IMG/VR virus record: IMGVR_UViG_3300046318_000439
Span: 64,001 to 128,000 of that record
Length of the DNA stretch: 64,000 bases
DNA from: a virus
Lineage: Duplodnaviria; Caudoviricetes
Reading direction: 5' to 3' (one strand)
The translations under genes and the position numbers were made by a program. The first letter of the stretch is position 1. Each line of letters starts with the position of its first letter. The notes under the pieces were generated by a model that worked only from the letters and a program-made list of their open reading frames with translations, ran no database searches and was not told the DNA's origin. Shown here piece after piece: positions 9,595-22,141 of this stretch.

Positions 9595-10894
9595 TACAAA
9601 GACCACTGCAATGAACGAAGCTAAGGATGCTGCTTTAGACAGCATCGGCTTCGTTTTGTCTGCTACAAAAACTCAATCAGTTCAATTAAAGAAATCGTCA
9701 CTGCTTGCAGCACGTAACGTCGTAGCGGTGCGTAAAAATTTAGTATCTCTCGTAACTACTTTTAAAACATATCAAAATACAATCAAGCAAATACAAGCCG
9801 TCGTTGGTAAAGGCGGAGATGCTAATAGCAAGGTATCTAAAATTAGTGGCATACTTCAATCTGGAGGAGATGCATACAAAGAAAAAGAAGCAGAGCAAGA
9901 AGACAAACCAAAAGCCACCGAATTGGTGAAGGGCATTGGTAAGAATGTAGCTACTGCTGCAGGCTCTGCATTAGCCCTAGCCATTCCATTCTTATTGAGT
10001 CCAGAAATGCGCGAAATGTTGATGAGTTTCTTTAGCGGTTTCTTGGAAGGTTTGGGATTAGGTAAAGATGCCCTGGATAAAGTTAAGCTCGGATTCGGAA
10101 TAGCTGCTGGTATATTGATAGCTTATTTCTCTGCATCAGTTATATCAAGTATAGCAGGGGCATTCATGCAAATGCAAAAACTAGCGCAGGTGTTGGGATT
10201 GGCTGGTGAGGTCGTAAGCGCTGAGAAAACCAAAATAGATACAGAGAAAGATAAAGTCAAGCAAGCAGGCAAGGGAACTAAAGCAGAGTTGGATAGTGCC
10301 AAAAAGGACATGAAGAAGAATAGCAAGGGCAATCTTCTAAAACGACTAGGAGTGCTTAAAAATACACTAGGTCCTAAACTATTGAAGTTGGGCAAAAACT
10401 TTCTTAAAGCACTACCAATAGTTGGCACAGTTTTAGGCATAGGACTCATTTTGTATGATTTGTTTGATATAGGTAAAGATGTTTGGAATTTCCTTAAAGG
10501 GGAAGAAACGACGGACGCTGAAGATAAGCAAAACACAGAGCAAGAAGATGCAGCTCCTGTTTCTGCTACATCTGCTCCAGCGTCAGCTGCTGCCTCTGCC
10601 CCTGCAGCAGCTGAGGCAGAAATAAAAGCACCAACAAGTAATACATCTGCAGCAGAAATGACTTCAGCTAGCTCTGCTCCCGTTGCAGCTGAACCAGCCG
10701 ATACCCCTCGCGCTGAAGGTATGGCCATACAAGAAAGTTCCGTAAAGGTAGAGCAAGCTGATTCAGATCTTGCTCGTACTGCTGGGGGAGTAAATATTAC
10801 TACAATAGACAATTCTACAACAATAATGTCCAGCCCTAAATCAGCTACCGCACCTCCTTCAACGCTAGTATATTCAGTAACGGTAGGAATGTAA
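9587..10894 (+). CDS. Tape-measure/gp29-like hub protein, part 1
   Basis: Ala/Gly/Lys-rich helical protein with hydrophobic segments directly after gp26-gp51. Confidence 0.55.
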   Translation: MADTKTTAMNEAKDAALDSIGFVLSATKTQSVQLKKSSLLAARNVVAVRKNLVSLVTTFKTYQNTIKQIQAVVGKGGDANSKVSKISGILQSGGDAYKEKEAEQEDKPKATELVKGIGKNVATAAGSALALAIPFLLSPEMREMLMSFFSGFLEGLGLGKDALDKVKLGFGIAAGILIAYFSASVISSIAGAFMQMQKLAQVLGLAGEVVSAEKTKIDTEKDKVKQAGKGTKAELDSAKKDMKKNSKGNLLKRLGVLKNTLGPKLLKLGKNFLKALPIVGTVLGIGLILYDLFDIGKDVWNFLKGEETTDAEDKQNTEQEDAAPVSATSAPASAAASAPAAAEAEIKAPTSNTSAAEMTSASSAPVAAEPADTPRAEGMAIQESSVKVEQADSDLARTAGGVNITTIDNSTTIMSSPKSATAPPSTLVYSVTVGM

Positions 10895-16400: not shown

Positions 16401-16952
16401 ATGACAGTTCATTTTGTATATATGTGGTTTGATCGTGTGCGCAAAATGTTTTACGTCGGTCAACATACTGGATCTCTGAATGATCAATACACTTCTTCTT
16501 CACGTTGGCTAGCTGGAGAGATACGTTATCGTCCAGCCGACTTTAAACGTCGCATCATTCGTACATTCAGGACTAAGCATGAAGCTCAGCTATATGAAGG
16601 CAGACTACTAACGCTCATCCGATCCAACGAGTTTGGCTCGAGGTATTATAACCTGAAGATGGGTGCACCTAAAGGCAACTTGCCTTGGAATGCTGGTAAA
16701 ACTAATGTATATTCGAAAGATACGTTAGATAAAATGTCGACCGCCAAAAAAGGACGGCCTTCTCACAATAAAGGTAAACTGAGCCCACTATCAGCCCAAA
16801 ACGGTAAAAAGGGAGCTTCAAAGCTCGCCAAAACTGTAACAGGGAGAAGAATGGCTACTAGGCTAGATGGTACACGGTACTGGATATATCCAGATGTAGA
16901 TTGTTTGGGTGATAAGGAACAATCTACAAATCCTCATTCGATCACTGCTTAA
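16401..16952 (+). mobile_element. Free-standing Seg-like GIY-YIG homing endonuclease gene inserted antisense in tmRNA
   Basis: FVYMW...KMFYVGQHTG...QYTSSS catalytic module, FKRRII, YYNLK, NUMOD-like PWNAGKT/MSTAKKGRPSHNKGK tail. Confidence 0.82.
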
Positions 16953-17091
16953 GCAGCGAGAGCGAAGCGGCTATCATTAGCTGCAATTACATTTATTTGC
17001 TTCTTCGGCCGAGTGTCCTCAACCCTATCGTCTTTCACATTGACGTGTTGCCGTCTCTACTATCTCACGCTGTCGAAACTGTTTCAGGCCC
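16893..17091 (-). ncRNA. ssrA: tmRNA coding piece (permuted two-piece tmRNA), tag AANDSRFALAA
   Basis: 5' GGGCCTG pairs with 3' CAGGTCC-ACCA including G3.U70; TTCGAC D-loop motif; CAGCGTG pairs with CATGTTG of acceptor piece; tag codons 16984-16949. Confidence 0.92.
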
Positions 17092-17152
17092 AATAGAAAG
17101 TATACTACAGCTTTCAGTTACGATACCCCGTAGCACCCCTTAATATACTTTC
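17092..17152 (-). ncRNA. tmRNA intervening segment
   Basis: 61 nt between CCA end and mature 5' end, closed by 9-bp inverted repeat GAAAGTATA/TATACTTTC. Confidence 0.8.
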
Positions 17153-17210
17153 TGGTGGACCTGCCCGGTACTGCCCCGGGGTCCAACATGCCTTCGCTTT
17201 GAAGGGATTA
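17153..17210 (-). ncRNA. ssrA: tmRNA acceptor piece
   Basis: ...CATGTTGGAC CCCGG GGCAGTA CCGGG CAGGTCC ACCA; T-arm with non-canonical GGCAGUA loop; 5' boundary approximate. Confidence 0.88.
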
Positions 17211-17321
17211 CAACAATTCTTTTTTACGAGTTACCAAATGGTATATTACCCAAAAATATATATTAACTGTAGTAGCAATGCCCCATATAAAGGTCCAGTG
17301 CCAGTAGTCTATTAGTATCAT
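17208..17321 (-). CDS. Small hydrophobic protein (37 aa)
   Basis: MILIDYWHWTFIWGIATTVNIYFWVIYHLVTRKKELL*; below ORF-track cutoff. Confidence 0.4.
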   Translation of the reverse strand: MILIDYWHWTFIWGIATTVNIYFWVIYHLVTRKKELL

Positions 17322-20361: not shown

Positions 20362-20573
20362 TATACTAACTCCTCTTCTTCACAAGTAGCTACTACCTCT
20401 AAACTATCACCAGCTTGCATGAAACTAGCAAAGTCTCTCATCGCGAACATTAGATTGTTATCATAATCATCAGAACCTTCTAAACCTAAATCATATGAAC
20501 CAATCACACAACCTGTACTACCCTTCATAATCAATTTCATTTTCATTCCCTTTTCTTCACTTGATGTAATCAT
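20361..20573 (-). CDS. Hypothetical protein (true start probably about 20546)
   Basis: Follows early promoter and GAAAAGGGAA RBS. Confidence 0.6.
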   Translation of the reverse strand: MITSSEEKGMKMKLIMKGSTGCVIGSYDLGLEGSDDYDNNLMFAMRDFASFMQAGDSLEVVATCEEEELV

Positions 20574-20603
20574 TGTCCCTTTTTATCACAAAAAGGTCAA
20601 CTG

Positions 20604-20837
20604 TTAATCCCAACTTTTCTTACCACCGAATTCTTCGTTCCAATCGTAACCAGCTAGGTAAGCATCACGCTCTTCATCAGTTAATTCAGTAATCGCTTCT
20701 GTATCATAACTACCACCAACGTAGTAATGTGGCTTACGAGGACGGTCATACCAACTATCAGCTGAACCACGGTCAAACGGGCCACCATGACGGTTATCGT
20801 ATAACACACCTTTGTATAACGTTACATTATCAATCAT
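20604..20837 (-). CDS. Hypothetical phage protein
   Basis: HGGPFDRGSADSWYDR...YLAGY motif; own promoter and RBS. Confidence 0.75.
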   Translation of the reverse strand: MIDNVTLYKGVLYDNRHGGPFDRGSADSWYDRPRKPHYYVGGSYDTEAITELTDEERDAYLAGYDWNEEFGGKKSWD

Positions 20838-20924
20838 CTTATTCCCTTTCTTTAACTTATGAATCTATTATCCGGGTTTATGACAAAAAGGTCAACAGGG
20901 CAGATCCTATCGATTATACAGGAA

Positions 20925-20958
20925 AAAAAGAACCCCGGTCCAACGAAGGTACCGGGGT
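20925..20958 (-). terminator. Rho-independent terminator
   Basis: CCCCGGT-accttcgttgg-ACCGGGG stem followed by TTCTTTTTTT. Confidence 0.8.
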
Positions 20959-21079
20959 GTGAAGGCCTTGTTTTTTAACAAGACTAGGGGAAAGGTGGTG
21001 GTAATGTGATGTATTGCAACATCCTCTTGACTGCTGCTACAGTCTTTCAGCCTAGCGTCAAGGCATCCTACTTGGCATC

Positions 21080-21146
21080 ACCATATTGAAGCACACGGGC
21101 CTCTGATCAGACTTATAACGCCTAAGCCGATGTGCTTCAATATGGT
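21080..21146. repeat. Hairpin 1: 16-bp stem, 35-nt loop, shares the tRNA CCA end
   Basis: CCATATTGAAGCACA (21081) / TGTGCTTCAATATGG (21131). Confidence 0.85.
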
Positions 21147-21219
21147 AACCTGTACGGGATTCGAACCTGTGAATGCCACCGTGAAAGGGTGGTGACTTAA
21201 GCCACTTGTCGAACAGGTT
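21143..21219 (-). tRNA. tRNA-Glu (TTC)
   Basis: Cloverleaf AACCTGT/ACAGGTT, anticodon loop CTTTCAC, GGTTCGAATCC, encoded CCA. Confidence 0.95.
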
Positions 21220-21226
21220 ATATTAC

Positions 21227-21291
21227 CATATTGAAGTACACTATCTCTACTTAAAGTTTATCGCTAGCGACACACAATGTACTTCAATATG
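21227..21291. repeat. Hairpin 2: 14-bp stem, 37-nt loop
   Basis: CATATTGAAGTACA (21227) / TGTACTTCAATATG (21278); compensatory change relative to hairpin 1. Confidence 0.85.
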
Positions 21292-21390
21292 TGCTCGTTT
21301 GCGAATCATCCCGATTGGCTTAGAGCTTTGCAGTCATCACCTGCATGTCTTTACGCTTCCCAGCGATAGACTACGATGTACGAATGAATC

Positions 21391-21531
21391 TTACGAGGCC
21401 AACTCGCCTTTAAAGTAAACACGAACCGTGCCTGGAGCTGACGGACTAACTAAAACTGCTTCAGTCGTCTCACAGTAAGTGTCACGCTCTGTTGCAAATA
21501 ACACGAATGATGCGATTGCTGCTGATTCCAT
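21391..21531 (-). CDS. Small hypothetical protein (46 aa)
   Basis: MESAAIASFVLFATERDTYC...GELAS*; AAGGAG RBS and own promoter. Confidence 0.6.
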   Translation of the reverse strand: MESAAIASFVLFATERDTYCETTEAVLVSPSAPGTVRVYFKGELAS

Positions 21532-21565
21532 ATTCTTTCTCCTTAACAAAACCATTATCTAACAT

Positions 21566-21736
21566 TTAAACGAATAAGTCAACACTCTCGAGTTCAGAAG
21601 AACGAATCTCCAACAACTCCTTATTCGCATCTTCAATTGCTTCAGGAGAATCCAAATACTCCTGATACTCCAACTCAGCACAGTATGCCTCGTAACCAGC
21701 TGTGTCTTCAATTTGAATATCGTCGAATGAGTCCAT
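21566..21736 (-). CDS. Small acidic protein (56 aa)
   Basis: MDSFDDIQIEDTAGYEAYCAE...; own promoter and GAAAGGG RBS. Confidence 0.65.
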   Translation of the reverse strand: MDSFDDIQIEDTAGYEAYCAELEYQEYLDSPEAIEDANKELLEIRSSELESVDLFV

Positions 21737-21790
21737 TTTGTTTCCCTTTCAATTTAATATAATTCATTATCCCGAAAAAGTACAAAAAGG

Positions 21791-22060
21791 TCAACTGCTC
21801 AAATTCATCACACGACCTGGATATTCCATGAAGTCAACTCTCCAAGGAACGAACACTGTCTGACCAACACGACTATGTTTACCTTTTGGTTGCTCTTCAC
21901 CACCATACACATCTTTAGTCACGGTAATCTTATATGACTGAAAGTACTCTTCATTGCAGTTTACAATCTCAACAATACCTTCTACGAAACAATCACCACG
22001 ACCGTCCATTGGTTTGAAGTCGTAAGATCTGATTTTATCGCCTTTTTTCACTTGTAACAT
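21791..22060 (-). CDS. Hypothetical phage protein
   Basis: KGDKIRSYDFKPM...CFVEG; own promoter and RBS. Confidence 0.75.
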   Translation of the reverse strand: MLQVKKGDKIRSYDFKPMDGRGDCFVEGIVEIVNCNEEYFQSYKITVTKDVYGGEEQPKGKHSRVGQTVFVPWRVDFMEYPGRVMNLSS

Positions 22061-22141
22061 TTTGTTTCCCTTTCTTCACTGTATGGATACAGTATCCCGG
22101 AAAAAGGACAAAAGGTCAACAGGGCCAAAAGGCCCTATTAA

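Follow-up and report, generated by a model that had tools for sequence, protein, structure and literature searches.

To our knowledge, the regulation of transfer RNA (tRNA) arrays in large phages is almost unstudied. T4 species 1 and 2 (rnaC and rnaD) are small stable RNAs in the T4 tRNA cluster that are co-transcribed with it and cut out by the tRNA-processing machinery; each is a single gene of ~120-140 nucleotides (nt), of unknown function. RNase III processing hairpins, such as the T7 early RNA sites and the stems of the 16S/23S ribosomal RNAs, are long helices that bracket mature RNAs in a precursor. Here, we describe two hairpins that bracket a tRNA-Glu gene in a 64,000-nt stretch of viral DNA (the window; bases 64,001-128,000 of the IMG/VR virus record IMGVR_UViG_3300046318_000439). 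These hairpins very probably belong to a structured RNA family of phages, whose members we call clamps.

Leader and trailer stem-loops also occur between the tRNAs of one transcript in polycistronic bacterial precursors, where they inhibit RNase P and enforce a 3'-to-5' order of maturation (PMC10731613). RNase P needs a free RCCA and prefers U at position -1, and both pairing of the RCCA and stable leader stem-loops inhibit the enzyme and enforce the order of processing in such precursors (PMC10731613). Cleavage by RNase E normally falls 1-3 nt beyond the encoded CCA (PMC2190699). Y RNAs (YrlA/YrlB and Yrn1; Chen et al. 2014, PMC4201824; Rfam RF02553) have a conserved helix, formed by their ends, that closes a variable or tRNA-like module, and some are found in phages and handled by tRNA enzymes (PMC4201824). 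By analogy, the clamp family appears to work most like the leader and trailer structures of bacterial pre-tRNA operons (PMC10731613). The latter are idiosyncratic to each operon, whereas clamps share one near-invariant 17-bp sequence in more than 100 phage contigs, carry conserved inserts, and are as long as a tRNA.

Two hairpins with a shared stem flank tRNA-Glu

The tRNA-Glu(UUC) gene (21143-21219, minus strand) is 77 nt long, encodes its CCA, has an A1-U72 pair and one T-stem mismatch, and was recognized by ARAGORN and by Rfam RF00005 (51.7 bits). Hairpin 1 (21226-21292) and hairpin 2 (21080-21146) bracket it, both on the tRNA strand. Their exact arms, CATATTGAAG(C/T)ACA, lie at 21082-21095 and 21131-21144 (hairpin 2) and at 21227-21240 and 21278-21291 (hairpin 1), and these four are the only exact arm copies in the window and in the whole 202-kb genome; about 1.7 arm matches with up to two mismatches are expected by chance. 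An earlier note on this DNA, made from its letters alone, had described a shared stem with a compensatory C-G to T-A swap. This was borne out at all four arms, with two corrections: the RNA is read from the minus strand, and the stem there extends over 17-18 bp, longer than first stated. The 17 bp common to both hairpins (CCAUAUUGAAGYACAUU/AGUGURCUUCAAUAUGG) form their closing helix, and the two copies differ by one compensated pair, U-A in hairpin 1 (pair 12) and C-G in hairpin 2. Relative to the helix of the wider family described below, hairpin 2 matches at 16 of 17 positions per arm (C for U at position 17, with C-G replacing U-A), and hairpin 1 has A for C at position 1.

Hairpin 2, read from 21146 to 21080, has a stem of 17-18 bp that opens with A73-C74-C75-A76 of tRNA-Glu, in line with the earlier remark that one stem starts with the tRNA's own CCA. 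Hairpin 1, read from 21292 to 21226, has a stem of 16-18 bp and closes 6 nt before the 5' end of tRNA-Glu, so that the intervening leader UAAUAU (21220-21225, as read from the sequence) places a U at -1. It is preceded by a non-tRNA module that ends in ..GAGCA, not CCA, and the placement of the helix on C74-C75-A76 is a feature of hairpin 2. Both hairpins are stable: the folding energy is -35.3 kcal/mol (z -6.85) for hairpin 2, which forms an irregular helix of ~24 bp, and -24.7 kcal/mol (z -5.80) for hairpin 1, and none of 200 shuffles folded as stably as either. An alternative pairing is possible between the arm at 21131-21148 and that at 21223-21240, which would enclose tRNA-Glu.

The loops proved as different as had been claimed, the 35-nt insert of hairpin 2 and the 37-nt insert of hairpin 1 giving no alignment to each other. 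Each contains a 10-nt palindrome, TCTGATCAGA at 21102-21111 and TCGCTAGCGA at 21261-21270, with a chance probability of ~0.03 each in a shuffled loop. The 202-kb genome holds no further copy of the stem; a weak look-alike at 9768-9863, inside a 435-amino-acid (aa) open reading frame (ORF), is a chance match.

The stem is under RNA-level selection

We scored the 17-bp helix in an alignment of 129 distinct hairpins. Paired bases fill 98.8% of the helix cells, a value that is partly set by construction, as at least 16 pairs were required of each hairpin. Further, changes on both sides of a pair were seen at 13 of the 17 pairs (136 cells), as in the compensated variants ..UUCUAG../..CUAGAA.. and ..AUCCAAACGC../..GCGUUUGGAU... 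None of 500 shuffles reached the observed values of helix pairing and compensation, and slid registers collapsed. The consensus of pair 16 is itself U·G (107/129). With that pair left out, the chosen orientation contains 66 G·U or U·G cells against 25 non-pairs (tallied from the per-pair table). On the tRNA-sense strand these wobbles are G·U, whereas the opposite strand would show A·C, and the orientation that they favor is that of the nearest tRNA in 132 cases out of 146. No variation was seen at A3, A10, or their partners across the aligned hairpins. The stem is under RNA-level selection, and an element acting at the level of DNA is disfavored because the pairs are compensated, target-site duplications are absent, and no genome contains similar interiors.

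A phage RNA family embedded in tRNA arrays

Scanned with the exact pattern, IMG/VR yielded this stem, with loops of 29-50 nt, in 34 further viral contigs, and 61 metagenome contigs also contain the exact pattern. Adding two half-relaxed patterns brought the total to 81 IMG/VR viral contigs (34 + 47 + 62 pattern matches collapse to these), within which a tolerant search identified 172 hairpins (136 unique). Their inserts measure 23-97 nt, and a single contig holds as many as six copies. The constant scaffold with variable cargo that the earlier note saw in two copies therefore holds across all 172. Among 185,579 bacterial and archaeal species genomes, there was one match, on a 744-bp contig binned with a Polynucleobacter metagenome-assembled genome; the family is essentially phage-only. 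Searches of Rfam 15 (at gathering thresholds, and with E up to 10 on the region) returned the tRNA alone, with chance-level matches to microRNA precursors over the hairpins, and literature searches with the exact stem string and with keywords returned no paper that contains the stem or describes the family. Relative to Rfam 15 and the literature searched, the clamp-stem family is thus new, and we rate it as a kind of small RNA or processing structure embedded in tRNA operons.

Clamp modules lie almost always within tRNA arrays of 15-33 genes, on the tRNA strand, in a slot the size of a tRNA. In 66 copies, C74 of the upstream tRNA doubles as the first C of the stem, and in 24 the next tRNA takes its first base or bases from the terminal G or Gs of the stem. 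A CCA is also encoded by 792 of the 811 unclamped tRNAs of the same arrays, and therefore belongs to the tRNA. Given these junctions, the release by tRNA processing that had been proposed for the two hairpins is plausible. The further stem copies near tRNAs that had been envisaged are absent from the rest of this genome and present, mostly in tRNA arrays, in the 81 viral contigs. Two clamps also bracket a tRNA, tRNA-Tyr, in five other contigs, and the suggestion that the hairpins are remnants of tRNA-linked cassettes was an understatement, as they are intact members of a living family. Both hairpins of the window lie in a phage genome and adjoin a tRNA gene. They are typical family members in an atypical setting: the usual site of a clamp is a tRNA array, whereas tRNA-Glu here is solitary and lies outside any array.

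The same arrays and genomes contain other structured RNAs. The tRNA array of one clamp-bearing phage contig includes a GOLLD RNA (RF02032, 207 bits; L051:7302-7765), a group I intron match (RF00028, 53 bits) adjoins a clamp and tRNA-Gly in a phage tRNA array (L010:13185-13378), and ARAGORN called a tRNA with anticodon CUA (amber-reading, "Pyl"-type) in the array of a related phage (L110:628-702). In the genome studied here, outside the window, a small tRNA cluster at 154.2-155.8 kb is interrupted by ORFs, and the second tRNA-Glu(UUC) of the genome (contig positions 155,660-155,734; feature C1:155535-155734) carries a CCA-anchored clamp of ~125 nt. This clamp has a different stem (CCAUAUGAAUACUCUCUG.../...CAGAGAGUACCCAUAUGG) and encloses a T-arm-like hairpin.

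Inserts are conserved between phages and not within genomes

The inserts are tens of nucleotides long and differ from copy to copy in a genome: none of 135 within-contig pairs exceeded 59% identity, and 110 between-contig pairs were more than 80% alike. Specifically, the insert of hairpin 1 has an ortholog, in the same clamp, on a metagenome contig (L208:317-384) whose 3.2 kb hold no tRNA gene. The two differ at the tip, where UCG-CUAG-CGA becomes UCGG-UUUA-CCGA (CUAG to GUUUAC), at the last base, and in the clamp, which has C-G for U-A, and the L208 hairpin folds identically to hairpin 1. Because the change keeps the fold, the insert of hairpin 1 is conserved as a structure of two mini-hairpins, and because the L208 tip is not palindromic, the palindrome of hairpin 1 is the tip of a mini-hairpin and incidental. 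The inserts are not neutral spacers, one part of the outcome that the earlier note named as refuting it; that of hairpin 1 is conserved in an unrelated context with a structure-preserving change. Further, clamp modules can stand alone, since L208 carries the cargo of hairpin 1 without a nearby tRNA.

The palindromes are present in both loops of the window, as first described, and do not define the family. Palindromes of at least 8 nt occur in 31 loops where 21 are expected, an excess that becomes smaller when homologous loops are discounted. Dimerization through the palindromes was considered and rejected, on account of this weak enrichment and of the non-palindromic ortholog of hairpin 1. One loop family (L015:2711-2788, L026:10668-10743, L032:12294-12369, and L043:636-711) keeps a perfect 8-nt palindrome in four sequence variants (GGCUAGCC, GACUAGUC, GGUCGACC, and GGCAUGCC) next to a covarying hairpin, and there the palindrome might serve loop-loop dimerization. 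Six longer members (6/123 family inserts) have a T-loop motif directly before the 3' arm and look like tRNA-like RNAs with a hyper-extended acceptor helix; hairpins 1 and 2 are of the short type, and neither insert has the motif.

Clamps prefer particular tRNAs

With a detector that is agnostic to the stem sequence (at least 13 of the 14 nt from C74 paired with a segment that lies 15-170 nt downstream), clamps were found in 103 of 1,133 distinct tRNA-plus-trailer units. The shifted-arm control of this detector is not clean, because long stems still contain the shifted arm. Clamps strongly prefer tRNA-Lys(UUU) (26/50 clamped; P 8e-16), tRNA-Glu(UUC) (19/56; P 8.5e-8), and tRNA-Leu(UAG) (12/34; P 1.7e-5), with tRNA-Tyr following (10/50; P 0.011), where the P values treat units as independent and leave shared descent uncorrected. 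No clamp was detected on tRNA-Met (0/100), tRNA-Arg(UCU) (0/53), tRNA-Pro (0/51), or tRNA-Asn (0/48). Variant stems in two complete genomes (G003 and G004) follow the same tRNA types. Codon demand was rejected as the cause of this preference, as the most frequent codons are GAU and AAU, whereas clamps are almost never seen on tRNA-Asp and tRNA-Asn.

Layout of the putative transcription unit and its phage

On the minus strand, the order of the putative operon is promoter, 46-aa ORF, 5' module, hairpin 1, tRNA-Glu, hairpin 2, 3' module, and terminator. This would be a small early operon, with the hairpins and tRNA-Glu transcribed together as its non-coding tail. The sigma-70-like promoter (TTGACT, 17 nt, GATAAT; 21554-21582), identified only by its match to the consensus, belongs to a series of near-identical modules. 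The 46-aa ORF (21391-21531) starts at an in-frame ATG at 21531 within the frame 21391-21555 and has an AAGGAG ribosome-binding site, as read from the sequence. The 5' leader module (21293-21350), the 3' end of which (..GAGCA) abuts hairpin 1, is conserved in the syntenic slot of two related phages, L130 and L102, with the pattern ..GCAAAGCC.U.AGCC..UCGGGAGA..CGCGA.AGGC; its fold is not significant (z -0.92), and a consensus fold from three sequences is weak. Downstream of hairpin 2, the 3' module (20993-21079) begins at the position where a tRNA would begin after a clamp. It consists of an irregular long hairpin closed by (G)GAUG/CAUC(AC), with a weak folding signal (z -2.04), followed by AUUACCACCACC. 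Its tail (..ACCAC..UUUCCCC) is common to L130 and L102, and the module has no match at the other clamp loci. A small hairpin (20982-20967) and then an intrinsic terminator (stem 20958-20932, U run 20931-20923) end the unit (20923-20982), and this double 3' hairpin is also found in L130 and L102.

The interior of the slot varies among these three contigs. In L130, the same 5' module and double 3' hairpin enclose a single clamp hairpin and ~290 nt of further non-coding sequence, but no tRNA, and in L102 they enclose a degenerate clamp. Because both contigs keep the bracketing modules around different interiors, the slot appears, from sequence comparison, to be a conserved non-coding transcript with exchanged interior modules. 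The tRNA-Glu-plus-clamp unit found here resembles the tRNA-Glu-clamp units in tRNA arrays of other phages.

The virus record is a complete genome of 202,272 bp that has direct terminal repeats and a G+C content of 39%. The baseplate gp6 homolog that it encodes is most similar to those of Caulobacter phage Cr30 (40% identity), Sinorhizobium phage phiM12, and Pelagibacter phage HTVC008M. The phage is an uncultured T4-like myovirus, probably of a proteobacterial host. A search for the clamp stem in the three named phages gave chance-level, three-mismatch matches only, megablast and one tblastn search of a phage collection returned nothing, and no close relatives were found by way of a 154-aa neighboring ORF. 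The clade that shares the neighboring DUF932 gene and the transfer-messenger RNA (tmRNA) gene is large, with 551 IMG/VR matches. The neighbors of tRNA-Glu are small minus-strand ORFs, each with a repeated TTGACC-17-GATAAT promoter-like module before it. Copies of this module, which spans ~45-60 nt and comprises a terminator-like hairpin, TTGACC, 17 nt, GATAAT, and a ribosome-binding site, lie at 20567-20610, 20862-20905, 21761-21804, and 22086-22129, before successive small minus-strand ORFs, and it looks like a reused early promoter cassette. The phage also carries a permuted tmRNA gene (16858-17245, minus strand). The permuted tmRNAs of three related contigs (L130, L029, and L102) match the betaproteobacterial tmRNA model over its full length at 131-142 bits; these matches and the Polynucleobacter-binned clamp contig are weak hints of betaproteobacterial freshwater hosts.

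Discussion

The reading that we favor, and that we regard as an evenly balanced proposition given what the sequences offer, is that clamps are co-transcribed, CCA-anchored modules that would both gate the processing of tRNAs and be released as stable modules; the gating step taken by itself is tentative and somewhat doubtful. In the window, hairpin 2 base-pairs the 3' ACCA of tRNA-Glu and hairpin 1 puts a stable helix 6 nt upstream of its 5' end. In the family, clamp arm 1 holds the CCA and the AU-rich positions +1 to +4, and arm 2 holds the leader with an invariant U before the G+1 of the next tRNA. Clamps could hold tRNA ends double-stranded and so mask the RCCA and the leader needed by RNase P, together with the AU-rich site just after the CCA where RNase E normally cuts. 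Maturation of the flanking tRNAs would then be delayed or ordered, depending on a host cut specific for double strands or junctions, and tRNA-Glu in this window would be locked on both sides. The modules may be freed as discrete hairpin RNAs of ~60-65 nt, and their conserved inserts may have a function of their own.

Who would open the clamp was approached from the gene content. Genes for RNase III, CCA-adding enzyme, RtcB, and Ro60 were not found in the phage genome, and a search of 19 related large records gave no RNase III or Ro60 either. By neighborhood, no protein family occurs in more than 16 of the 81 loci, and the top families are ordinary T4-like genes. A phyletic profile of five clamp-bearing against two clamp-free complete genomes returned one cluster, a spanin-like protein that was rejected as unrelated to the clamps, although seven genomes are too small a sample to be conclusive. 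Because neither a phage enzyme nor a linked protein family was found, host enzymes or an unrecognized factor must act on the clamps.

Several observations weigh against a processing gate. A near-invariant stem sequence is needless for simple gating or spacing and points to a sequence-specific partner. The invariance looks greater than it is, because the hairpins were collected by sequence pattern. In the same arrays, the majority of tRNAs mature with no clamp. The module ahead of hairpin 1 is not a tRNA, and L208 has the same cargo without a tRNA, and thus modules can exist independently of tRNAs. The tRNA-type P values, finally, lean on the independence of units that may share descent.

Some of these points would suit stable, trans-acting small RNAs, in which the constant helix docks one sequence-specific host or phage protein, much as a Y RNA docks Ro60, the inserts act as decoys, tethers, or tRNA mimics, and the linkage to tRNAs merely supplies processing and expression. 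The near-invariant helix with its conserved U·G wobble, inserts that are genome-specific yet conserved between phages, the six tRNA-like members with a T-loop motif before the 3' arm, the occurrence of hairpin 1 cargo in L208 without any tRNA, and the filling of tRNA-sized array slots all speak for such RNAs. We nonetheless consider them unlikely: no candidate partner was found among the families neighboring the 81 loci, the sole gene that tracks clamp presence in seven genomes is spanin-like, Ro60 is absent from 20 phage records, and a processed helix would lose its CCA and GG pairs to the neighboring tRNAs. Plain sites for RNase III or another double-strand RNase, separating precursor modules and enclosing functionless loops, would explain helices of 17-18 bp that extend into the insert (to the ~24-bp irregular helix of hairpin 2), as well as their position exactly between mature RNA ends, and, as the phage lacks an RNase III of its own, the host enzyme would act. 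Such sites are, however, quite improbable as a full account. RNase III is not known to require sequence conservation of this degree, the inserts are conserved with structure-preserving changes (in L208 and in the L015/L026/L032/L043 loop family), the modules are as long as a tRNA rather than minimal, and a strong preference for particular tRNAs would be unexpected of generic sites.

Constant terminal inverted repeats around variable interiors are also what would be expected of DNA elements, either miniature inverted-repeat transposable elements (MITEs) or recombination joints that shuffle tRNA cassettes, with the arms as transposase or recombinase sites. Two direct copies bracket the tRNA here and tRNA-Tyr in five other contigs, and the L130 slot, which has a single clamp but lacks a tRNA, would fit the gain or loss of a tRNA-plus-clamp unit. 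The mismatches are strand-asymmetric, however, being G·U on the tRNA-sense strand, and the compensatory changes keep a pairing that protein recognition of a terminal repeat does not need. Further, there are no target-site duplications (the flanks, GCA|..|UAA and UUA|..|UGA, differ), the two copies in the genome have unrelated interiors, with none of the 135 within-contig pairs in the family above 60%, and no transposase or integrase family is linked to the 81 loci; we therefore hold a DNA element to be very unlikely. Least credible of all is the proposal of the earlier note that the loops are guide or antisense RNAs that pair with phage or host targets. Loops of 35-37 nt on a constant scaffold are spacer-like in size, but the best complementarity in the 202-kb phage genome is 11-15 nt (E of at least 0.78), which is not beyond chance, and the loops have no match at other clamp loci except for the ortholog of hairpin 1 in L208. 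Moreover, the loops are internally folded, and the insert length ranges over 23-97 nt. Nor do the arms, inverted repeats that form one helix, resemble the direct repeats that separate spacers in CRISPR arrays, a comparison made from the arms, as cas genes were not searched for.

Returning to the processing gate, comparison with the described systems places clamps apart from each. The likeness to T4 rnaC and rnaD is one of position among tRNA genes only, and clamps differ in being a modular family with a shared, CCA-anchored helix. Like RNase III sites, clamps offer some two turns of double-stranded RNA, made up of 17-18 bp and the insert helices stacked on them, and we know of no RNase III sites with comparable sequence invariance or conserved cargo. 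With Y RNAs, they share a conserved closing helix around variable modules. On every Y-RNA trait that could be tested, however, clamps differ: no PF05731 match for Ro60 exists in this phage or in 19 related records (these being phage genes only, so that a host Ro60 is possible), the GNCGAAN0-1G motif of Y RNAs (PMC4201824) is absent from both hairpins, no Y-RNA family of Rfam matched at E up to 10, and the two hairpins lack the tRNA-like domain with T and D arms. MITEs would leave a target-site duplication and several near-identical copies per genome, and clamps show neither.

The intervening segment of a two-piece (permuted) tmRNA resembles clamps in being a spacer that is excised from between a 3' end with CCA and a 5' end of the RNase P type. 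That of the window (~17150-17095) is a stem-closed hairpin directly after the CCA (GAAAGUAUA.../...UAUACUUUC), and so has a clamp-like architecture; unlike clamps, it has a different stem and is a single-copy part of one gene.

Several of the clamped types among Lys(UUU), Glu(UUC), Leu(UAG), and Tyr are targets of bacterial anticodon nucleases. One could envisage that clamps are a phage device which, with the CCA end held in a helix of constant sequence, keeps a reserve of particular tRNAs inert or protected until a specific factor opens the clamp, or that the released hairpins are decoys or sensors against host tRNA-targeting defenses. We regard this as a long shot; if true, defense-linked clamps would represent a novel class of regulation, in which RNA controls the supply of tRNAs during infection.

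More broadly, a helix conserved in more than 100 uncultured phage contigs implies an unknown sequence-specific step in phage tRNA biology, candidates for which are processing control, the protection of tRNA ends, or a small-RNA family that rides on the tRNA-processing machinery. If the preference for particular tRNA types reflects defense or counter-defense, it would link tRNA arrays to a new RNA mechanism. Even if they are mere processing stems, clamps constitute a well-defined new RNA family for Rfam.

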